Origin: an uncultured Gammaproteobacteria bacterium | Lineage (GTDB): Bacteria; Patescibacteriota; Patescibacteriia; Veblenbacterales; UBA10138 | Assembly: GCA_964348825.1 (NCBI GenBank) | Contig: CAYGDX010000001.1 | Location: 90,909-154,908 of the forward strand | Direction of reading: 5' to 3' | Length of the DNA: 64,000 nucleotides | Shown: positions 3,569 through 63,055 of the stretch, one piece after another | Layout of the letters: every line of letters starts with the position of its first letter | Numbering within the stretch: position 1 is the stretch's first letter | Position numbers and translations under genes: made by a program | Notes under the pieces: generated by a model | The model's input: the letters and a program-made list of their open reading frames with translations, nothing else | Told to the model about the DNA's origin: nothing | Databases searched by the model: none

Positions 3569-3809
3569 TTGTGTAAGAAAATAATAATTTCTTCGTTAAA
3601 TAAATTAGCAGTAGATTTTAAAATCCGAATATCTAATACTGAAATCCGAAAAAGATGGAGTTTTGTATTTTGGGCTTAGAATTTTGGATTTATTTAGGAT
3701 TTAGAAATTAGAAATTAGGATTTTTTTGGATTCCCGCCTCCGCGGGAATGACAATTACTAAAACTATTAGCTATTTGCCATTTACTATTGGCTAAATTAT
3801 AATATCCTC

Positions 3810-4076: not shown

Positions 4077-4187
4077 GGGTGTAGCGTGTAGGGGGTAGGG
4101 TGTAGTATGCTTGCCCCGTGATCGTCATCAGACGATTTTACGGGGTCATTGCGAGGAGCGAGTAAGGCGAGCGACAAAGCAATCTCT
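4074..4187. repeat. Composite MITE-like repeat: G-rich gggtgtag segment + ccccgt..acgggg hairpin + gtcattgcgag..agcaatc (family A)
   Basis: Same modules recur at 23397-23448, 26011-26100, 26221-26262, 26535-26622, 38466-38545, 52855-52900, 53806-53980. Confidence 0.6.
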
Positions 4188-4356
4188 CAAAAGTTTCAAT
4201 GACCAAGTTTAAAGTTCAAATAAATATTCAAAAGTTTCTAAAATTTTAAAATGTTGGAACTTTATTGGAACTTGGAAATTTGAACTTGGGATTTAAACAA
4301 TTTAGACATTTTTAGAAATTAGAGCTTAGAAATTAGTCATTTTTAATCTTTATTTT

Positions 4357-5840: not shown

Positions 5841-6449
5841 CTACTTCCTAACCACTTTCGCCACTACAATTTCACTGGCCGTTATATCTTGCCCAGCAAC
5901 TTCCGCATTAGTTGTAATAGTTACAGTTTGTCCTACTTGCAAAGCACTAGCAGTAATTTTTTTAGTTAAAGTTGTAATTTTAGGTGCACCACCGGCGCTT
6001 GGAATAACCACAGTAGTGGTGCGTTCAGTAATTTTAGTTTGGGGAGTATAGTTAATAGTAAAATTTCCGGCTCGCAAAGTAGTTGGTGCGCCATTTTTAC
6101 TCGCACTCTGCATTTGCAAAACAAAAGATGATTTAGTTGCGCTCGTAATCGTTCCGCTTAAAGTGTAAGTAATTGGTGGGGTGATTGCCCCGTTATCATT
6201 TATTGGCGCTATCGGTTCAGTGTCAACTGACTTCGAACTATCAACTTCTAACTTTAAACTACCATCTATTAACTCTTGGCTATCGACTAATGACTCATCA
6301 TTGCTATTTGCTATTAGCGATTTGCTAGTAGCCACTTGCCACGCCTTTCCATAACCCAAATTATAACTAACAGCCGAACTTGCGCCCGCCAAAATTAAAG
6401 CCAGTATTATTACCAACCCAATTCCACGGGAGTTAAGAATAATGTCCAT
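5841..6449 (-). CDS. Hypothetical secreted/membrane-anchored protein, Thr/Ser-rich
   Basis: N-terminal signal/anchor (IGLVIILALILAGASSAVS), low-complexity T/S-rich body. The only minus-strand gene in the first 11 kb. Confidence 0.4.
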   Translation of the reverse strand: MDIILNSRGIGLVIILALILAGASSAVSYNLGYGKAWQVATSKSLIANSNDESLVDSQELIDGSLKLEVDSSKSVDTEPIAPINDNGAITPPITYTLSGTITSATKSSFVLQMQSASKNGAPTTLRAGNFTINYTPQTKITERTTTVVIPSAGGAPKITTLTKKITASALQVGQTVTITTNAEVAGQDITASEIVVAKVVRK

Positions 6450-21874: not shown

Positions 21875-21912
21875 ATAATCATAATAACATTAGATCACTA
21901 GAACATTAGAAC

Positions 21913-22272
21913 ATGAGTCAAGAATTCAGAGAGCAGTTAAAAAAGAAAATGGACGAATATGTAAAATTAGTTTATCGCGTGACTAAAAATTATCCCCGCG
22001 ACGAGTTATATGGAGTAACTTCACAATTAAGAAGATCAACCCTATCCGTGATATTAAATTATTTAGAGGGTTATGCCAGGCGCCGAATTCCAACTTGCTA
22101 TCATTTTTGGGAAATATCTTATGGTTCGTTACAAGAAAGTAGATATTTATTAGATTTATCATTAAATGAAAATTATTTATTAATTGAAAATCACAAAACA
22201 TTAAGTGTTTTAGCTGATGAAATTAGTGCTATGCTCTGGCAATCCTTGAAGAATTTAGAAAAATACAAATAG
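21913..22272 (+). CDS. Four-helix-bundle protein (23S rRNA intervening-sequence protein family)
   Basis: SQLRRSTLSVILNYLEGYARRR matches the 'four helix bundle protein' family signature. Bracketed on both sides by family D repeats. Confidence 0.7.
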   Translation: MSQEFREQLKKKMDEYVKLVYRVTKNYPRDELYGVTSQLRRSTLSVILNYLEGYARRRIPTCYHFWEISYGSLQESRYLLDLSLNENYLLIENHKTLSVLADEISAMLWQSLKNLEKYK

Positions 22273-22307
22273 TTAATGTTTAAGTGTTCTAATGTTTTAA
22301 TGTTCAA

Positions 22308-23390
22308 GTGTTTATGTCCACCACCGACTCCTTAACCATCAATCGCTTGCTCACTGAAGCCGCAGAAAGGCAGGTATCTGACCTTCATTTTACTGTTGGT
22401 GCAAATCCAGCCGCGAGGCGTGACGGCAAGCTTGAAACATTAAACGCCGAGCCACCCGTCACCGAAGAATTTATGAAAGGGTTGGTCGAATTTTTTATTC
22501 CGGAGAATAAGAGAGCTCGTTTTGCCAGCGCGCAAACTTTAACCTTAACTTATAATTTTGGCACACGCGCTCGTTTTCGGGTGCACGGAAGCTACCAAAA
22601 GGGTTATCCAGCTTTAGATTTACATTATGTACCATGGCAAGCGCCCGACGTTACAACTATGGGTTTGCCTAAAATTTTACTTAATTCTATAAAAGAAAAA
22701 GAGGGATTGATTCTTTTGAGTGGTTTGCAGGGGTCAGGCCGTAGTGCTACGCTCGCGGCGCTACTTGATAATATTAATCATACACAAGCTAAACATATTG
22801 TAACGATTGAAGATCCAGTGGAGTATTTACTGACCAACGATAAATCATTTATCAAACAAAAAGATGTCGGTGATGATATTCCAAGTGTGGAAGATGCTTT
22901 GGGTGGCCTTAAAGATGAAGATGTAGATGTGCTAGCGATTGATGTACCGCTTAATATGGCGGCTTGGCGCGAAATTTTTACACGGGCGCGGAGCGGCACT
23001 TTAGTTTTTGTGGCGATGGAAGCCGATACTTCAGTGCGGGCGCTAGAATCACTTATTTTAAGTTGGCCGGGTGCTGAAGCTGATAGTTTAAAACAATTAT
23101 TAAGCGAAACACTTCTCATTGCTACTTCACAGCGCTTAGTGCCACGCGTTGGCGGTGGTAAGGTAATGGTAGTAGAATGTTTACTTGGTAATACGCCGGT
23201 TAAATCATTAATTCGCGATGGTAAGATTTTACAACTCCAAAATGTACTGGAATTATCGCGTGAAGATGGTATGGTGTCACTCGAAAAAAGATTGTCTGAT
23301 TTAGTAAAAACTGGAGAAATTACACAAGAAGATGCAGTAGCTCACGCTGTGAACAAAGAGGTGATTGGGTCGATGTTGCGGGTGAAGTAA
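22308..23390 (+). CDS. pilT: PilT-like retraction-ATPase homolog with degenerate catalytic motifs
   Basis: PilT-length GspE-family core. Walker A is GLQGSGRSAT (Lys to Arg, Pro to Gln). Walker B region DEDVDVLAIDVP lacks the catalytic Glu. His-box GTLVFVAMEA lacks the His. Confidence 0.7.
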   Translation: MFMSTTDSLTINRLLTEAAERQVSDLHFTVGANPAARRDGKLETLNAEPPVTEEFMKGLVEFFIPENKRARFASAQTLTLTYNFGTRARFRVHGSYQKGYPALDLHYVPWQAPDVTTMGLPKILLNSIKEKEGLILLSGLQGSGRSATLAALLDNINHTQAKHIVTIEDPVEYLLTNDKSFIKQKDVGDDIPSVEDALGGLKDEDVDVLAIDVPLNMAAWREIFTRARSGTLVFVAMEADTSVRALESLILSWPGAEADSLKQLLSETLLIATSQRLVPRVGGGKVMVVECLLGNTPVKSLIRDGKILQLQNVLELSREDGMVSLEKRLSDLVKTGEITQEDAVAHAVNKEVIGSMLRVK

Positions 23391-23641
23391 TTTTTAGGGT
23401 GTAGCGTGTAGGGTGTAGTTCGTCATTGCGAGCTTCAGCGAAGCAATCCCTAGTAAATCCCCAAATCCCAATCCCTAAGATTGAATTTTAAATTATAAAT
23501 TTTAAGTCAATTTTTAATTAAAACATTTAGTTTTTGATTAAAAACCCGTAAAGGTCTCGTGGAGACCCACGCGTTTCTTTACGAGATTTAAAATTAAAAA
23601 TTTAGTTATTTTTAGAAATTAGATATTAGAAATTTTCGTTC

Positions 23642-24850: not shown

Positions 24851-24894
24851 AGTAAAATCCTAAATCCTAAACCCTAAATTCTAAACAATATCAA

Positions 24895-25263
24895 ATGACA
24901 GAAAATCAAAATTCAAAACAGTATAATTTAGAAGATAGGACACTTTGTTTTGCTAAAGAAATTGGTATTTATGTTAATAAATTGCCGTTTACAGTGCCTA
25001 ATAAGGAATACGGTAAGCAGTTAGTGCGTTCCGCGAGTTCGGTAGGCGCAAATTATCTTGAAGCTAATGAAGCATTAAGCAAAAAAGATTTTTTAATGCG
25101 GATTAAAATTTCTCGTAAAGAAGCTAAAGAAACTCGCTTTTGGCTACAATTAACCGAGCCATTACCAGAAATGAATAGCGCTAGAGATAAATTTATTCAA
25201 GAAATTACTGAATTAATGAAGATTTTTGGAGCAATTATAGAAAAATCTAAACCTAATGTTTAA
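24895..25263 (+). CDS. Four-helix-bundle protein (second copy)
   Basis: VRSASSVGANYLEANEALSKKDFLMRIKISRKEAKETRFWLQL matches the same family as 21913-22272. Confidence 0.7.
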   Translation: MTENQNSKQYNLEDRTLCFAKEIGIYVNKLPFTVPNKEYGKQLVRSASSVGANYLEANEALSKKDFLMRIKISRKEAKETRFWLQLTEPLPEMNSARDKFIQEITELMKIFGAIIEKSKPNV

Positions 25264-25382
25264 TGTTTTATAATTTTGGATTTGTTTAGTATTTAGATAT
25301 TAGAATTTAGGATTTAAATAAAACGCCATTGTGTACTTATTTGCCTAGTGTTATAATTATATCGTCAAATAGAATATTATAA

Positions 25383-25922: not shown

Positions 25923-25940
25923 TAATTTTTAAAACATTTA

Positions 25941-25979
25941 ACCCTCTTCCGTCCACACGGGGGAGGGTTTTTGTTTTTA
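25941..25979 (+). terminator. Rho-independent terminator after pilin gene
   Basis: aaccctc-ttccgtccacacgggg-gagggtt followed by tttttgttttt. Confidence 0.65.
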
Positions 25980-26274
25980 TGGTATGATTAGTGATAGATT
26001 GGGTGTTAATGAGCAGTTGTCATTGCGAGTGAGTCATCAGACGAGCGACGATTTGTCCGCCGTAGCTTTAGCGAAGGTGGAAGCAATCTATCAAAATCAC
26101 TAATAACTAATTCCTAATTTCTAAAAATTCCCAAGACCCAAATCCCAAAATTTAGACATTAGTCATTAGATATTTTTAGAAATTAGATATTAGACATTAG
26201 AAATTTATTTTTTAGAGATTGCCACGCCCTCGCTCTTTTCGCTCGGGCTCGCAATGACATAACACTCTTACTCT

Positions 26275-27102
26275 ATGCTCTTACTAATCTTCATCTTCGG
26301 CCTCTGTCTCGGCAGTTTTTTAAACGTCCTCATTCTCCGCCTAAAAGACGACAAGTCAATTCTCGGTCGTTCGCAGTGTCCAAAGTGTTTAAGGCAACTT
26401 AAATGGTTTGAAAATATTCCACTACTTTCTTTTATTTTTTTACGCGCGAAATGTGCTTCGTGTAATCAACCAATCTCTTGGCAATATCCTTTAGTAGAAT
26501 TTACGAGCGGGGTTTTGTGGGTTACATCCTACTTTGTCATTGCGAGCCAAGCGAAGCAATCCCTCGTTTTAGCAACAGAGATTGCCACGTCGTCCGCTTC
26601 GAGCGTCCTCCTCGCAATGACACAAAACGATTGGCTGGCTATGTTTACTTTTGGTGTATTCGTAACCATTTTACTCATTCTTTTTGTTTTTGACTTTCGT
26701 TGGTACATTTTACCTGATCAAATTACCATTCCTGCCATCGTTATCACCATAATTTTACAATTACTACTCGGCGTTTCCATTATTAATTTACTTATCGCAG
26801 GATTATCTGGTGCGGCTTGGTTTGGCGCGCAATATTTTGTATCAAAAGGTAAATGGGTGGGTGATGGTGATATTCGCCTTGGCGCTTTAATTGGTTTAAT
26901 GCTTGGCACTTGGCAGTTACTTTTAACCACTTTTTTTATCGCTTATATTGGTGGCGCCATTATTGCCGTTATTTTATTGTTACTAGGCAAAGTAAAACGT
27001 GGGGCGAAACTGCCAATGGGAGCGTTTTTGACAACAGCAACGATAATTGGGCTGATGTATGGTAAAATAATATGGGAATGGTATATAGGATTAATATGGT
27101 GA
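26275..27102 (+). CDS. pilD: Prepilin peptidase PilD (A24 family) carrying an in-frame repeat insertion
   Basis: N-terminal CxxC-x21-CxxC zinc domain (CPKC...CASC), A24 core with GDGDIRLG Asp motif. Residues VIASQAKQSLVLATEIATSSASSVLLAMTQN are encoded by a family A repeat. Confidence 0.8.
   Translation: MLLLIFIFGLCLGSFLNVLILRLKDDKSILGRSQCPKCLRQLKWFENIPLLSFIFLRAKCASCNQPISWQYPLVEFTSGVLWVTSYFVIASQAKQSLVLATEIATSSASSVLLAMTQNDWLAMFTFGVFVTILLILFVFDFRWYILPDQITIPAIVITIILQLLLGVSIINLLIAGLSGAAWFGAQYFVSKGKWVGDGDIRLGALIGLMLGTWQLLLTTFFIAYIGGAIIAVILLLLGKVKRGAKLPMGAFLTTATIIGLMYGKIIWEWYIGLIW
26535..26622. repeat. Family A repeat (tgtcattgcgag..agcaatc..ctcgcaatgaca) inserted in-frame within pilD
   Basis: Same inverted-repeat module as intergenic copies (e.g. 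4146-4185, 53824-53929). Reading frame of pilD is uninterrupted. Confidence 0.75.
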
Positions 27103-27242
27103 TTGAATCACTAATCACTAATTCCTAATATCTAAAAATCACCAAGATCCAAACCTCAATCCCAAAATTTAGTCATTAGACATTAGTCATTTTTAGAAAT
27201 TAGAGATTAGTTATTAGACATTATATAAGTTAGTACATAATC

Positions 27243-28664: not shown

Positions 28665-28839
28665 TTTAACGAGTAAGTATTATTGTCATTCTGAGCCACA
28701 GTGAAGAATCTTTAAATTTTGAAAATTTCCAATGACCAAGTTCCAATTTCCAATAAATTTTCAATGATTTAAAATTTTCAAACATTGGAACTTTATTGGG
28801 ATTTTGAACTTTGAACTTGGGATTTAAACAACTTAGATT

Positions 28840-30430: not shown

Positions 30431-32671
<2,241 letters not shown>

Positions 32672-32682
32672 GTTAAGATAAG

Positions 32683-32841
32683 TGTGTCATTCCCGTGAAT
32701 CCGCCATCCGTCAACTGGTCGGAGGCGGAGGGAATCCAGAGACAAGTTGTTTCGAACCTAGAAGCTAGAATATAGAATCTAGATAAGTGCAGTCCAAATT
32801 ATAACTTCTAACTTTTATATTCTAAATTCTGGACACTTTGG
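32683..32841. repeat. Composite repeat, second copy flanking ligA
   Basis: gtgtcattcccgtgaatccgccatccgtcaactggtcggaggcggagggaatcc ... ctagaagctagaatatagaatctagataagtgcag ... ggacactttgg; matches 30431-30659. Confidence 0.65.
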
Positions 32842-33165: not shown

Positions 33166-33392
33166 TTAAGTAAGAGTAAGAGCTTAGAGCTGTGCCCCGT
33201 ACTGTTTCCACTGAAGTGGAATCTAGTACGTGGGTAAGAGTGGCTTGCCCCGCGTAGTTTTAACGAAGTGGGGTCATTCCCGCGGAGGCGGGAATCCAGG
33301 AACAAAAAATCCTAAATAAATCTAAAATCTTAAATTCAAAATTTTTAAACATTTAGTTATTTGGATTTGATTTGACATTTAGATTTTGAAAT

Positions 33393-35570: not shown

Positions 35571-35793
35571 ATTTAAAATCCTAAATCCGAATATCTAAAT
35601 CCTAAATAAATCCCAATGATTAAAAGCCAAAATTGAATTTTAAATTATAGATTTTAAATCAATTTTTAATGACTTAATTTTAAAACATTTAAATATTTAT
35701 TAATTTAATCATTGAATAAAAATTTAAAATTAAAAATTTTAGTTATTTTTTAGAAATTAGATATTAGAGATTAGAAATTTTGAAAATTGCTTT

Positions 35794-36534: not shown

Positions 36535-36590
36535 GAGTTTTTTAAAAATCCGAAATTCGAATATCTAAATCCTAAATAAATTCCAAAAGT

Positions 36591-36760
36591 CGTGCGGCCT
36601 CGTCGTAGGGTTTGTACAGAGCGCAAGGCAAACGAGCGTCCGGTTCGGGCGTGCTGTGGTAGTTGTGCATAGCCCGAACCAGCTCGTTTGGCGAGCACTG
36701 TTCAAACCCGAAGACACAGGCCGCGATTCTTGGTTACTTCTATTAAAGAAGTAACAAAAT
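36591..36760 (+). repeat. Structured about-170-nt element (family C), forward orientation; possible small ncRNA or cruciform-forming MITE
   Basis: Long stem caaacgagcgtccggttcgggc...gcccgaaccagctcgtttg plus terminal hairpin ggttacttct-attaa-agaagtaacc. Related copies at 37667-37853 (reverse), 39899-40170 (with about 100-nt hairpin insertion), 52622-52850 (diverged). Confidence 0.5.
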
Positions 36761-37632: not shown

Positions 37633-37666
37633 TATAGAATTAAAATTAGTTTATTTGTTTTTTTGT

Positions 37667-37853
37667 CACTTCTCTAGGAGAAGTAACCAAGAGTCGCAAC
37701 CTTTGTCTCCAAGTCAGGCAGTACTCGTCAAACTCGCTGGTCAGGCCTATGCACATCGACCACAAACACGGCCTGACCGGACGCTCGTTTAACTTCCCTG
37801 CCTACCGGCAGGCAGGCGCTCTGCACTGACTTTACGACGAGGTTGCACAACGG
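37667..37853 (-). repeat. Family C structured element, inverted orientation, with compensatory stem changes
   Basis: Reverse-complement alignment to 36591-36760. Stem ggttcgggc/gcccgaacc is replaced by ggtcaggcc/ggcctgacc (covariation). Extra hairpin cctgcctaccggcaggcagg. Confidence 0.5.
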
Positions 37854-38476: not shown

Positions 38477-38680
38477 GTGGTAGCATGTAGCTTGTAGTGG
38501 TTGTCATTGCGAGAAGCGAGTTAAACGAGCGACAAAGCAATCACTTAAAATCACTAATAACTAATTCCTAATATCTAATAATGACTAATGACTAAAATAA
38601 AAAAATTAGACATTCGTCCGCCAGCTGGCGGATTGGGATTTTTTAGAAATTAGATATTAGAGATTAGTCATTCTAAAATA

Positions 38681-39618: not shown

Positions 39619-39696
39619 TGGCGGGCCCGGCCGGATTCGAACCGGTGATCTTCTCCGTGACAGGGAGACGTGTTAACCGGGCTACACCACGGGCCC
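39619..39696 (-). tRNA. tRNA-Asp (anticodon GUC), CCA encoded
   Basis: Reverse complement folds as GGGCCCG-TG-GTGT-AGCCCGGTTA-ACAC-G-TCTCC-CTGTCAC-GGAGA-AGATC-ACCGG-TTCGAAT-CCGGC-CGGGCCC-G-CCA. Perfect 7-bp acceptor stem, U33, A37. One A.C mismatch closing the T-stem. Confidence 0.7.
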
Positions 39697-39790: not shown

Positions 39791-39898
39791 CGCTTTATTA
39801 ATATAGCAGAAACAATATTTATTTCAAGGGGTATATTAAAAATCCTAAATCCGAAACCCAAACTTCTAAATAAATCAAAAATCCCAATTCCCAAAAGT

Positions 39899-40170
39899 CG
39901 TGTGGCCTCGTCGTAGGGTTTGTACAGAGCGCAAGGCAAACGAGCGTCCGGTTCGGGCGTGCTGTGGTAGTTGTGCACCCGCCTGCCGAAGCTGTTTCCC
40001 CAAGTTAACGTACGATGATTAGTATACTTTAGTTAACTATTAGAAATACTAAAACTAAGTTGGGCTAGCGGCGGGCAGGTAGCCCGAACCAGCTCGTTTG
40101 GCGAGCACTGTTCAAACCCGTAGACAAAGGCCGCGATTCTTGGTTACTTCTACTAAAGAAGTAACAAAAT
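39899..40170 (+). repeat. Family C structured element with about 100-nt hairpin insertion
   Basis: Same 5' (cgtgtggcctcgtcgtagggtttgtacagagcgcaaggcaaacgagcgtccggttcgggcgtgctgtggtagttgtgca) and 3' (agcccgaaccagctcgtttggcgagcactgttcaaacccg...ggttacttctactaaagaagtaac) arms as 36591-36760. Inserted stem-loop cccgcctgccg...cggcgggcaggt. Confidence 0.5.
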
Positions 40171-43821: not shown

Positions 43822-43959
43822 ATTTGAGCATGTAGTTTATTGTAGGTGTCATTCCCGCGTAGGCGGGAATCCAGAAACAAATTACCTTGAATTGGTATTA
43901 AAAAATTATTAATATATTTTATAGATCCCTGATCAGGTCGGGGATGACAGTAAATTTTT

Positions 43960-52850: not shown

Positions 52851-53066
52851 TAATAAGAGATTGCTTCGCTCGTCTGATGACTCACTCGCAATGACATTTA
52901 TGTTTGTATTATACCCCTCGGCTTGGCTCGGGGTTATCCGCTTTTTACAATAAATAAATTCTAGAAAGCGGATAAAAAAACAGAGTTGGAAAATTGAGGA
53001 TTAAATTAATTTTAATCCAGAAAATTCCAACTCTATAGATTATTCGTCGATGACTTATAGTGCCAT

Positions 53067-53805: not shown

Positions 53806-53980
53806 AGTTTGTCAAGCCCGTGTGTCATTGCGAGCGAGTCCAAAGACGAGCGCGGCAATCTCACGTTTAAAGAAAATTCACCAGAGATTGCTTCGTCCTC
53901 CGACTGCGGTCTACGTCCTCGCAATGACAGTGGGTGTGTTATAGCAATCATTATTATTTGCTCTTGGGCTTGACAAAGAG
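53806..53980. repeat. Family A repeat bounded by terminal inverted repeats tttgtcaagccc / gggcttgacaaa
   Basis: gtgtcattgcgagcgag...ctcgcaatgacag core (53823-53930) nested inside a 12-bp perfect IR pair at 53809-53820 and 53966-53977. Confidence 0.6.
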
Positions 53981-54316: not shown

Positions 54317-54489
54317 GTAGCTCAAATGTATTTTATTTTGGAGCCACTATAATATCAGTGGCTTCTTTTTTTATTAACAAGTACAATGTAATTAGATTGA
54401 AATTTACCCCACCTAGCCTCCCCTAGAAAGGGGAGGAATTAGAAATACATTCTTAATTCGTGATTCGTTATTCTAGATTCTGTAACACT

Positions 54490-54936
54490 ATGTCCACCTT
54501 AGCTCAAAACAAACGCGCGCTATATGATTATCAAATCCTGGAGAAATTTCAGGCAGGATTAGTGCTGACTGGTGCTGAGGTAAAATCGACCAAAGGTGGG
54601 CGAGCGAATTTGCAAGGAAGTTATGTGTTGCCACGCGGTAATGAGTTGTGGTTGACTGGCGCATCAATTGCGGCTTATCCACCAGCGGCACGGGAGCAAA
54701 TTTCTTACGACCCAAATCGTGACCGCAAATTATTACTCAAGGCGCAAGAAATATCTTATTTGATAGGTAAGTTGAAGGAAAAGGGCTTGACAGTAGTACC
54801 AATTTCTATTTATACTGCGCATAGATTAGTGAAAGTTGAATTAGGGGTGGCGAAAGGTAAAAAGACGCATGATAAACGCAAGGTTATTAAACAGCGACAG
54901 CTAGATAGAGAAGTGAGGGGTTCTTTAAAATACTAG
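54490..54936 (+). CDS. smpB: SsrA-binding protein SmpB
   Basis: NKRALYDYQILEKFQAGLVLTGAEVKS...NRDRKLLL...AKGKKTHDKR matches SmpB throughout. Listed ORF starts at 54460; Met at 54490 fits SmpB N-terminus. Confidence 0.85.
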   Translation: MSTLAQNKRALYDYQILEKFQAGLVLTGAEVKSTKGGRANLQGSYVLPRGNELWLTGASIAAYPPAAREQISYDPNRDRKLLLKAQEISYLIGKLKEKGLTVVPISIYTAHRLVKVELGVAKGKKTHDKRKVIKQRQLDREVRGSLKY

Positions 54937-55026: not shown

Positions 55027-55408
55027 GGGGGTGTTTACAATTTGCTAGTTCATTAAAATTATTTTCGGCAGGTGGTAGTGAGATCTACCTAAAAAGCTCA
55101 ACCTACAAATGCCAATTCATTTGTCGCTAAAATGAAGAATGCTTTTGCATCTTTATCTTTAGCACCAGTTATGGCCTAAAATCCATAACCGTTTGTTTAG
55201 CCAATGCTCAATAAGTTAAACAAGCGTCATTCATTGAGCTGTGATATGCTATAGTTGATACTTATGTAGCAGTCAAGAACTTTAAGTGTCGGCATTTTAG
55301 AATTTTGTGCGGTTTTTATCTAAAATTTCCTACTTAAATCACACTGAACCTGGAGCCGAAGGTAGTAGTTTGAATTACACACGGGTGCAATTCCCGTCAT
55401 CTCCACCA
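55027..55408 (+). ncRNA. ssrA: Putative tmRNA (ssrA), about 380 nt
   Basis: Directly downstream of smpB. 3' end cgggtgcaattcccg (T-arm-like) + catCTCCACCA (tRNA-Ala-like acceptor 3' strand, discriminator A, CCA). 5' GGGGGTG can pair with CATCTCC including a G3:U70-type wobble. Internal candidate tag ORF gcc aat tca ttt gtc gct aaa atg aag aat gct ttt gca tct tta tct tta gca cca gtt atg gcc TAA (ANSFVAKMKNAFASLSLAPVMA*). Confidence 0.45.
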
Positions 55409-55823: not shown

Positions 55824-56394
55824 TTTTTATCGTCCCCGTTATCGGGTGAATCAATATATTAGAATCCCTGAAGTTCAGTTAATAGATGAAACAGGGAAAC
55901 CATGTGGCATTGTGCCAACAGTGGAAGCTTTGCGCCGTGCACAAGAAGTCGGGCTTGATTTAGTGGAAGTAAACCCAACTGAGCGTCCTTCGCTTTGCAA
56001 AATAATGGACTGGGGACAATTTCAGTACAAGCAGAAAAAAATGTTGCAGGCCCAAAAAGTTAAAGCCCACAAAGTAGCGCTTAAAGGTATTCGGTTAAGC
56101 TTAAAAATTGGTGAACACGATCGGCAAGTGCGAATAGATCAATCAAAAAAGTTTTTGGATGAAGGGCATCACGTGCGACTGGAAATGATTTTGCGTGGGC
56201 GTGAAAAGGGTCGCGGTGATTTAGCCCGTGAAATTATGCAAAAATTTGTAGCGGATTTAGGTGAAGGCATTCAAGTGGAAAGCCCATTAGCCCGCCAAGG
56301 CGGTAATGTTAGTATGCAGGTGGTAAAGAAGGTGGGGACGAAGGCAAAAGAGGAAAAGAAAGAGGAAAGTGAGTTAAAAATGACTAATAACTAA
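55816..56394 (+). CDS. infC: Translation initiation factor IF-3
   Basis: IRIPEVQLIDETGKPCGIVPTVEALRRAQEVGLDLVEVNPTERPSLCKIMDWGQFQYKQKK matches IF-3 N- and C-domains. Non-ATG start is likely (listed TTG at 55816 overlaps upstream ORF; an in-frame ATT at 55858 is a candidate), as is typical for infC. Confidence 0.85.
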   Translation: MRNFYRPRYRVNQYIRIPEVQLIDETGKPCGIVPTVEALRRAQEVGLDLVEVNPTERPSLCKIMDWGQFQYKQKKMLQAQKVKAHKVALKGIRLSLKIGEHDRQVRIDQSKKFLDEGHHVRLEMILRGREKGRGDLAREIMQKFVADLGEGIQVESPLARQGGNVSMQVVKKVGTKAKEEKKEESELKMTNN

Positions 56395-56606
56395 TGCCTA
56401 ATTTCTAAAAAATCCTAAATTTTAATGTCTAATTCCCAAATAAATTTTAAAATCCTAATACCCAAAAACTAAAACTTTTAGGATTTACGATTTGGGATTT
56501 ATTTAGGATTTCGGATTTAGGGCTTAGGATTTTAATAATTCCCTTGACTATATTGCTTAAATTCTGTATTATTTGATAGCTATTAAATTGTCTATTTTTC
56601 ATACCT

Positions 56607-62934: not shown

Positions 62935-63055
62935 TTGGTGTCATTCCCGTGAAAACGGGGATCTAGGAATTTAAAAAATCATTTATTATTGGATTCCCGC
63001 CTCCCTCCTTCGTTTATTAAAACTTCGGCAGCACAAGTCGCGGGAATGACAGAAA
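62935..63055. repeat. Family B repeat pair (gtcattcccg-hairpin-ggggatc ... ggattcccgc-hairpin-gcgggaatgac)
   Basis: Same gtcattccc / gggaatcc termini as copies at 3725-3755, 30490-30560, 32683-32740, 33268-33300, 43845-43940. Confidence 0.6.

Follow-up and report, generated by a model that had tools for sequence, protein, structure and literature searches.

The stretch analyzed here, referred to as the window, comprises 64,000 nucleotides of contig CAYGDX010000001.1 (GenBank assembly GCA_964348825.1, positions 90,909 to 154,908) from an uncultured member of the Patescibacteria. It contains a type IV pilus operon in which the prepilin peptidase gene, pilD, carries a dimer of repetitive extragenic palindromic (REP) units within its coding sequence. 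The operon around pilD is intact (PilM, PilB, PilT, and PilC), and three neighboring genes encode the N_methyl prepilin motif. The original prediction that a repeat element lies in frame within pilD is borne out by the open reading frame (ORF), the sequence, and the Pfam domains. The host gene and the parts of the element are arranged as follows.

26275..27102, + strand: pilD, prepilin peptidase / N-methyltransferase, a 275-aa ORF and host gene of the insertion
26535..26622, + strand: CGTC/TGTC-tagged REP dimer, two inverted units with tags outward, translated in frame as residues V88–T116
26535..26563, + strand: left unit, with TGTC tag, ATTGC stem, GAG, short inner CCAAGC, GAA, GCAAT stem, and CCC tail
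26564..26577, + strand: spacer between the units, TCGTTTTAGCAACA, differing in sequence and length among orthologs
26578..26622, − strand: right unit, TGTC-ATTGC-GAG-GAGGACGCTCGAAGCGGACGA-CGTG-GCAAT-CTC

The element is 88 nt long, begins with TGTC, and ends with GACA. The segment 26535–26622 reads TGTCATTGCGAG...CTCGCAATGACA, and in full TGTCATTGCGAGCCAAGCGAAGCAATCCC / TCGTTTTAGCAACA / GAGATTGCCACGTCGTCCGCTTCGAGCGTCCTCCTCGCAATGACA, corresponding to a unit, a 14-nt spacer, and a longer inverted unit. It folds as a single long hairpin (z = −4.9 for RNA and −4.2 for DNA). A role of this hairpin as an intrinsic terminator is ruled out, as the T-run is missing after it. The repeat-derived codons 88–116 encode 29 aa, VIASQAKQSLVLATEIATSSASSVLLAMT, between the A24_N and Peptidase_A24 domains, and the frame is unbroken. 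The predicted gain of about 30 aa between the Cys/zinc domain and the A24 core is thus retained at 29 aa, while two residues (QN) of the 31-aa string given earlier belong to the host protein. In the pilD frame, the termini of the element read V-I-A and L-A-M-T with zero stop codons, and pilD therefore stayed open. Since repeats are classic mis-assembly sites and the source is a metagenome-assembled genome, an assembly or binning artefact that mis-joined the repeat into pilD must be considered. However, four contigs from independent assemblies (NCBI, Logan, and ENA) encode the identical 275-aa PilD, which makes an assembly frameshift unlikely. Seven orthologs from other samples also carry the element at the same codon, and such an artefact is hardly credible.

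PilD contains the A24_N_bact domain at residues 7–87 (E = 4e-30) and the Peptidase_A24 domain at residues 128–231 (E = 1e-11). Its database relatives, 2410 at E ≤ 1e-10, are named prepilin peptidase and come from Patescibacteria. Cys35, Cys38, Cys60, Cys63, Asp140, Asp148, and Asp199 are present and invariant across 118 homologs. The protein thereby displays the features of the A24 class, namely the four Cys of A24_N, the core Asp pair (Asp140 and Asp199), and a multi-pass fold. Judged by these retained invariant residues and the flanking prepilin genes, PilD looks functional, as had been proposed. An AlphaFold2 model, built with the 118-sequence alignment, has a mean pLDDT (predicted local distance difference test) of 93.8 and contains eight long helices. 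In this model, the helix spanning residues 70–101, transmembrane helix 2 (TM2), continues through the first half of the insert, the pLDDT drops to approximately 64 around residues 101–110, and a short helix (109–112) leads into TM3 (117–143). The insert is moderately hydrophobic, with a mean Kyte–Doolittle hydropathy of 0.97. Its position is between TM2 and TM3, and the loops rich in Lys and Arg are on the opposite side; these hold seven such residues in 25–69 (the four-Cys loop), four in 237–247, and two in 191–196 (beside Asp199), as compared with one (Lys) in the insert. Asp140, Asp148, and the Asp-containing loops face the side opposite to the insert. The catalytic aspartates of A24 peptidases are cytoplasmic. 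From the positive-inside rule and this general feature of the family, we infer that the insert side is extracytoplasmic, since it has few Lys and Arg residues and lies opposite to the loops rich in them. The original placement of the segment in a cytoplasmic loop is accordingly not upheld by the charge distribution.

Comparison of PilD orthologs revealed that the insertion is not confined to this genome. The closest PilDs (P0002–P0007 and P0012, with 53–82% identity) all possess the V-I-A...L-A-M-T insert in the same place, and more distant PilDs have a basal 37-residue segment from TM2 through the loop to TM3. The ortholog loci are syntenic, with pilin, pilD, minor pilins, and ligA. Carriers of the dimer at the same codon include orthologs with only 53–61% PilD identity, and the identities between carrier genomes are approximately 62% for LigA and 59% for GatA. 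This finding suggests that the insertion is old and clade-wide with later losses, and does not support the recent or genome-specific origin that had been implied. In all eight loci, the dimer ends on the right at the same position, which precedes a conserved Trp by exactly three codons. In seven orthologs, the element measures 86, 98, 89, 107, 83, 74, and 86 nt, and every length is 2 mod 3. This regularity points to selection on the frame, and by extension to translation of the segment and to a PilD that is in use. It also bears on the proposal that pilD has become an open pseudogene, or that the segment is excised at the RNA level and so escapes translation. A moderately hydrophobic 29-aa segment beside a TM helix could disturb folding, and the low AlphaFold2 confidence of residues 101–110 might be read in that sense. 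However, neither a pseudogene nor excision would require six different element lengths all to be in frame. Furthermore, the residues invariant in the homologs are all kept, the pilin substrates and the pilus operon are intact, and the remainder of the model has very high confidence. We know of no bacterial mechanism that excises such a segment from mRNA, which counts against its removal, and we consider inactivation or excision very unlikely.

The interiors of the units provide information on descent. Between the orthologous loci L004 and L005, the right units share the inner hairpin with 38 of 42 nt identical (90%), while the left units are 63% identical, like the rest of the gene (66–69%). 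The right unit of the window is identical to that of L006 at 41 of 42 positions. None of the unit interiors in pilD matches another copy in its own locus. The shared right-unit interiors argue for vertical descent, and these comparisons indicate that there was probably one insertion, inherited vertically, that predates the divergence measured by LigA and GatA. In a neighbor-joining tree, PilDs with empty sites (P0017, P0019, and P0010) are sisters to carriers. The empty sites in L127 and L128 are clean to within one codon, and a decayed remnant is found in L129 (...ATGGA... versus ...ATGIA...). These observations suggest that the element was lost several times. The single insertion is thus traceable through orthologs in which it was kept, trimmed in frame, decayed, or cleanly deleted. 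In L130 (1288–2154, encoding P0012), an in-frame duplication affects part of the right terminus of the dimer (CTCGCAATGACA TGGGGGGGTGGA CTCGCAATGACA), giving ...LAMTWGGGLAMT.

The explanation that we regard as quite probable is an ancient in-frame REP dimer of the CGTC type in the TM2–TM3 loop of PilD that is translated, tolerated, and vertically inherited with losses. The shared position and interiors suggest that one dimer landed in the DNA for this loop in an ancestor of the Patescibacteria clade. From the conservation of the frame, it would have been translated as a 29-aa extension, modeled as a continuation of TM2 followed by a lower-confidence loop. Its predicted extracytoplasmic location, based on the charge distribution, would keep the extension away from the catalytic aspartates and the four-Cys domain, so that it would be tolerated. 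The trees and sequence comparisons suggest vertical inheritance since then, with in-frame insertions and deletions, decay in some lineages, and clean or partial deletion in others.

The same loop has accepted other repeats. In L305, whose PilD is 36% identical, a complete dimer lies four residues closer to TM3 with its left unit in another frame, and was independently placed. A related dimer with different stems in the same loop of L308 is also independent. Many other Patescibacteria PilDs contain in-frame AT-rich heptamer repeats at this site, as exemplified by (CAATTTC)4, which is translated as QFPISNFQFPN in P0027 and lies at 6303–6330 of L253. Accordingly, the TM2–TM3 loop is a generally tolerated site, a general sink for repeats in the PilDs of Patescibacteria. 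In proteomes derived from metagenomes, translated repeats of this kind inflate and distort both protein families and statistics on loop length.

The anatomy of the unit was derived from a set of 274 units, later of 609, taken from the window, the ortholog loci, and diverse genomes. The units follow the scheme (C/T)GTC - ATTGC - GAG - variable inner segment - CG(A/T/C)(A/G) - GCAAT - C(C/T)(A/C), in which five Watson–Crick pairs precede GAG opposite CGAA, CGTG, or CGCG, followed by an inner segment of 7–45 nt that often forms its own hairpin. In a set of 577 units drawn from 240 diverse loci, CGTC is the tag of 382 (66%) and TGTC that of 173 (30%), and the tail is CCA in 292 (51%), CTC in 149 (26%), and CCC in 39; the pilD dimer has TGTC at both ends and the tails CCC and CTC. 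The 3' loop is CGAA in 69% of units. The most frequent inner segments, CGCAGCGAA and CGAAGCGAA, contain GCGNAGC mini-hairpins, and longer ones are often perfect hairpins of unrelated sequence, such as ACCCTGAT/ATCAGGGT in L002, TCCCGAT/ATCGGGA in L004, and GGCCCC/GGGGCC in L039. The outer stem ATTGC/GCAAT has the compensatory variants ACTGC/GCAGT, ATCGC/GCGAT, ATCCT/AGGAT, and ATTCC/GGAAT; this covariation is small, with 5 compensatory versus about 12 single changes. The inner hairpins have a median z of −1.1, with values below −2 in 31% of units, moderate figures that arise partly because nearest-neighbor models do not score purine-rich GAG/CGA modules. In dimers, the tags point outward. Target-site duplication is missing in 114 of 124 dimers, and the sole flank preference across these 124 is Y at −1 and R at +1, i.e., the tag itself. 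Paired units outnumber single ones by 144 to 29, in loci that had been chosen for dimers.

These features resemble the CGTC-tagged REPs described by Di Nocera, De Gregorio & Rocco 2013 (BMC Genomics 14:522; PMC3733652). Such REPs have an unpaired CGTC (or TGTC/CCTC) tag, a stem of 8–9 bp opening with two A-T pairs, a loop of 4–5 nt, and a CCA-like tail. They occur predominantly as inverted dimers, mainly downstream of ORFs, with no associated transposase, and intragenic dimers in frame encode 20–30 aa (PMC3733652). The pilD-type unit shares the tag, the two initial A-T pairs, the tail, the arrangement as outward-pointing inverted dimers, the mostly intergenic location near the 3' ends of ORFs, the presence in many phyla, and the occasional in-frame intragenic dimer, here also in uvrA and guaA; UvrA is a recurrent REP target (PMC3733652). 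In contrast, its stem is 5 bp long, with a GAG...CGAA internal loop and a variable inner hairpin, often of the GCGNAGC type. We therefore file the 88-nt dimer, by its described features and at the level of the superfamily, in the CGTC-tagged REPs as a putative non-autonomous, REP-like element. Since the stem and loop dimensions deviate, the unit is placed as a structurally atypical CGTC branch, apparently defined by the 5-bp stem, the GAG/CGAA purine loop, and the variable inner hairpin. A Pfam scan found no transposase domain in 46 ORFs of the window, and all-versus-all clustering of the ORFs around 120 dimers in diverse genomes gave generic families only, with no gene recurring beside dimers. 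In Rfam, nothing reached the gathering score in the window, nothing matched the element at E ≤ 10, and nothing was found on eight loci of other phyla. Literature searches with DNA or translated peptide strings of the element returned primers only or nothing.

In-frame REP dimers are already published, and what is new here is the Patescibacteria host, the pilD target, the atypical and widespread unit, and its long nucleotide-level retention. The CGTC list of PMC3733652 is without Patescibacteria, Chloroflexi, Planctomycetota, Cyanobacteria, and viral contigs, all of which were seen here, and pilD is missing among its intragenic targets. Known from Rickettsia and a few Proteobacteria, in-frame protein-coding palindromes are thus extended to the Candidate Phyla Radiation. 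Their target here is an integral membrane protease that the type IV pilus apparatus of such tiny cells requires. The insertion is also a natural system in which to study how CGTC REPs spread and persist without a known transposase, a question open since 2013.

The element is conserved beyond its coding role. Among ortholog pairs, the codon identity at conserved residues is 0.82 in the element motifs, as compared with 0.39 when the same classes of amino acid are considered in the rest of pilD (Mann–Whitney p = 1e-4). The Ala codon in the element is GCG in 7 of 7 cases in a genome of 38% GC. Synonymous sites of pilD are saturated, yet the termini are perfect in most carriers, and the matches of 11/11 nt in most lineages are therefore not explained by neutral decay at the synonymous-site rate. 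These comparisons show nucleotide-level conservation of the termini and sub-terminal motifs that goes far beyond amino-acid needs. Candidates for the cause are a DNA or RNA hairpin constraint, a protein-binding site, or renewal by some process.

One alternative is that the dimer is kept as a nucleic-acid element in the pilD message or gene, acting in processing or stability, as a pause hairpin, or as a protein-binding site, with the 29 aa as a tolerated by-product. The codon conservation agrees with this possibility, as does the 90% identity of the right units of L004 and L005 against 66–69% in the rest of the gene. Strong hairpins (z of −4.8 to −7.7) are kept in 5 of 7 orthologous dimers, those of L003 and L005 being in decay. 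In the consensus structure of the seven dimers, nearly all pairs are invariant, and one-sided changes mostly keep G-U pairs on the sense strand. Moreover, the same termini of 11–12 nt recur across many phyla and viral contigs, and REPs have been proposed as RNA elements 3' of ORFs (PMC3733652). However, pilD persists in several lineages in which the element was lost or has decayed, the missing T-run speaks against an intrinsic terminator, and no Rfam family matches. The orientation bias of single units relative to genes (9 co-oriented and 5 anti-oriented) is not significant, and the sample is small. We consider a nucleic-acid role unlikely as the main reason for retention, while granting it more weight than any other alternative.

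A further alternative is that REP dimers have entered pilD at one position repeatedly and independently in several lineages, or have been renewed there, such that intact termini would reflect recent arrival and not constraint. The neighbor-joining tree interleaves element-bearing PilDs with empty-site sisters, unit interiors differ between most lineages, and the termini remain perfect in most carriers at saturated synonymous divergence. The independent gains of L305 and L308 demonstrate that insertion into this loop can be repeated. REPs also occur at about the same recB site in two Xanthomonas species, and REP dimers are nested in palindromic targets (PMC3733652). On the other side, the right boundary is the same to the codon in all eight loci, and the 124 dimers reveal no target motif beyond Y at −1 and R at +1. 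The interiors shared by L004 with L005 and by the window with L006 are attributable to descent, the left units of L004 and L005 diverged at the rate of the gene, and the remnant in L129 has decayed. In addition, no unit interior in pilD equals another copy of the same locus. Repeated insertion is thus rather improbable, and the single ancient insertion remains the favored explanation. Several points nevertheless weigh against it. Besides the interleaved tree and the independent insertions, the ortholog set is small (7–8) and was drawn from called full-length proteins, with a bias toward in-frame copies. A metagenome scan for close orthologs yielded mainly distant PilDs (36–45% identity). The stem and loop of the unit depart from the 8–9 bp and 4–5 nt of CGTC REPs, and the peptides VIAS, LAMT, RHCE, and SLRG are absent from the intragenic-REP list (PMC3733652). 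A PDB sequence search for a solved PilD homolog to orient the model gave 0 matches, and a Foldseek search of the model against the PDB found nothing at E ≤ 0.001. Finally, we infer both the translation of PilD with its insert and its peptidase activity from sequence.

The distribution of the unit was surveyed with the exact pattern GTCATTGCGAG-N40-70-CTCGCAATGAC. At least 120 loci were found in a collection of species-representative genomes, and the matches listed include Alpha-, Gamma-, and Deltaproteobacteria, Bacteroidota, Chloroflexi, Planctomycetota, Cyanobacteria, and Patescibacteria. A collection of viral contigs also yielded at least 120 loci. Among loci with GC below 48%, 4 of 67 dimers lie within long ORFs, and three of these are clearly inside real proteins of low-GC bacteria, where they are in frame.

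L041, 4466–4543: in-frame dimer in GMP synthase (GuaA)
L047, 2835–2921: in-frame dimer in UvrA
L096, 3453–3522: in-frame dimer in a 410-aa protein

Intragenic dimers use several reading-frame combinations, but never one that reads TGA in the right terminus. When a Bradyrhizobium-type dimer was compared with plasmids by BLAST, three unannotated matches were obtained. A bolder, more doubtful proposal is that the unit GTCATTGC-GAG-hairpin-CGAA-GCAATCC may form an undescribed, distinct CGTC branch with near-identical termini in many phyla and phage-like contigs, held by nucleotide-level purifying selection even in coding DNA over about 60% housekeeping divergence, with the PilD TM2–TM3 loop as a recurrent landing pad. 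If so, the hairpin or a factor binding to it would serve the cell or a mobilizing machine.

Comparison with known systems places the element more closely. The analogy to Rickettsia palindromic elements (RPEs), drawn in the original prediction, is apt and close to literal, since RPE-4 and RPE-6 of R. conorii are CGTC-tagged REPs and intragenic dimers of this type encode 20–30 aa (PMC3733652). This likeness rests on that statement about RPE-4 and RPE-6. RPEs (Ogata et al. 2000, 2002, as cited in PMC10969869 and PMC3733652) are likewise palindromes that lie in frame within functional genes and add peptides. RPE-1, unlike the pilD element, is about 150 bp long and unrelated in sequence, and the rickettsial CGTC-4 peptide VIPVLDTGI differs from VIAS...LAMT of the PilD insert. 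The RPE host, unlike the present one, is an obligate intracellular alphaproteobacterium. REPINs and GTAG REPs, which are mobilized by REP-associated tyrosine transposases (RAYTs), are similar in that an inverted doublet forms one long hairpin and no target-site duplication is made; clean presence and absence among relatives is also shared and is compatible with single-strand excision. The REPIN/RAYT system was rejected, as the tag is CGTC/TGTC and not GTAG, no Y1 transposase is present in the window, and no RAYT lies beside dimers elsewhere. A miniature inverted-repeat transposable element was rejected as well: despite the presence of terminal inverted repeats, a flanking direct repeat is missing in 114 of 124 dimers, and no parent insertion sequence was found. 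The Neisseria dRS3/NIME repeat (ATTCCC-N8-GGGAAT; PMC1797815) is a sister unit of CGTC-1 type with the same GTCATT...AATCC frame, and serves as a prophage integration site (PMC1797815). Unlike the pilD unit, it has the stem ATTCCCGC, a perfect 8-bp hairpin, and a 4-nt loop. BRE of Betaproteobacteria, intragenic ERIC, and BOX/RUP (PMC3184786, PMC3110155) are also small repeats that occasionally lie wholly inside coding sequences with the frame kept. In contrast to the pilD element, their sequences are unrelated, and BRE units are tandem, resembling variable-number tandem repeats. The identity of the element with BRE of Bordetella was ruled out, as GTCATTGCGAG and GGATTGC motifs are absent from the BRE supplement.

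The unit family recurs in the window. The motif GTCATTGCGAGC (≤1 mismatch) occurs 10 times, as compared with 0.16 expected from shuffles, and all copies of the family except the one in pilD are intergenic, consistent with the original statement that the same family is found in intergenic DNA. The other copies are as follows.

4145..4187, + strand: single unit, intergenic
23422..23451, + strand: single unit, 32 nt past the stop of a pilT-like gene
26019–26096 (+ strand) and 26209–26258 (− strand): split dimer between the pilin gene and pilD, upstream of pilD
38503..38545, + strand: single unit, 27 nt past a DsbA-like gene
52856..52895, − strand: single unit, intergenic, in the same orientation as the flanking − strand genes
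53823..53929: second tight dimer, intergenic between divergent genes, upstream of smpB, with a hairpin z of −4.2

The partners of the split dimer are separated by an AT-rich inverted repeat (26094–26128 / 26172–26206). A strong intrinsic terminator (25940–25969; 13-bp stem and T-run) lies immediately 3' of the major pilin gene, and pilD therefore probably needs read-through or its own promoter in the repeat-filled spacer 25980–26274.

A second repeat family, GTCATTCCCGCG-GNRG-GCGGGAATCCAG, is located at approximately 33270–33300, 43845–43875, and 62937–62967. It matches the CGTC-1 type of Di Nocera et al. as well as the formula of the dRS3 repeat, ATTCCC-N8-GGGAAT, and its translation is VIPAKAGIQ. 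This Patescibacteria genome therefore harbors two families of the CGTC type. In addition, AT-rich short-period repeats (of the TTAGAAAT, TTAGGATT, GGAACTT, and AATGTTCTA types) fill nearly all intergenic spacers of the window, for example 3617–3729, 4239–4347, 26093–26206, 27104–27228, 28722–28837, 35572–35791, and 56377–56543. They form long imperfect inverted repeats, and several of their families recur 6–10 times. The in-frame heptamers in the PilD loop of other Patescibacteria, such as (CAATTTC)4, are related to them.

Two PF05635 genes (23S rRNA intervening-sequence protein / bAvd-like), at 21913–22272 and 24895–25263, lie within the pilus operon. Each is bracketed by AT-rich inverted repeats of approximately 40 nt that abut the start and stop and are 73–83% complementary (21875–22315 and 24855–25315). 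In orthologous loci, PF05635 genes are found after pilD, between pilB/pilT and pilC, or before the pilin gene. This variation in operon position suggests that they may be mobile cassettes resembling intervening sequences.

Longer repeats are also present. Two GC-rich segments of approximately 90 nt recur with 97% identity at a distance of 3.3 kb (36578–36760 and 39886–40170), with related inverted copies near 37642–37708. They flank DsbA-like genes and a tRNA-Asp gene (39619–39696). A 156-nt direct repeat with 89% identity (30504–30659 / 32686–32841) brackets ligA (30656–32671). A tmRNA gene (55027–55408; Rfam, 72 bits), for which ARAGORN gave no tmRNA, adjoins smpB (54460–54936).

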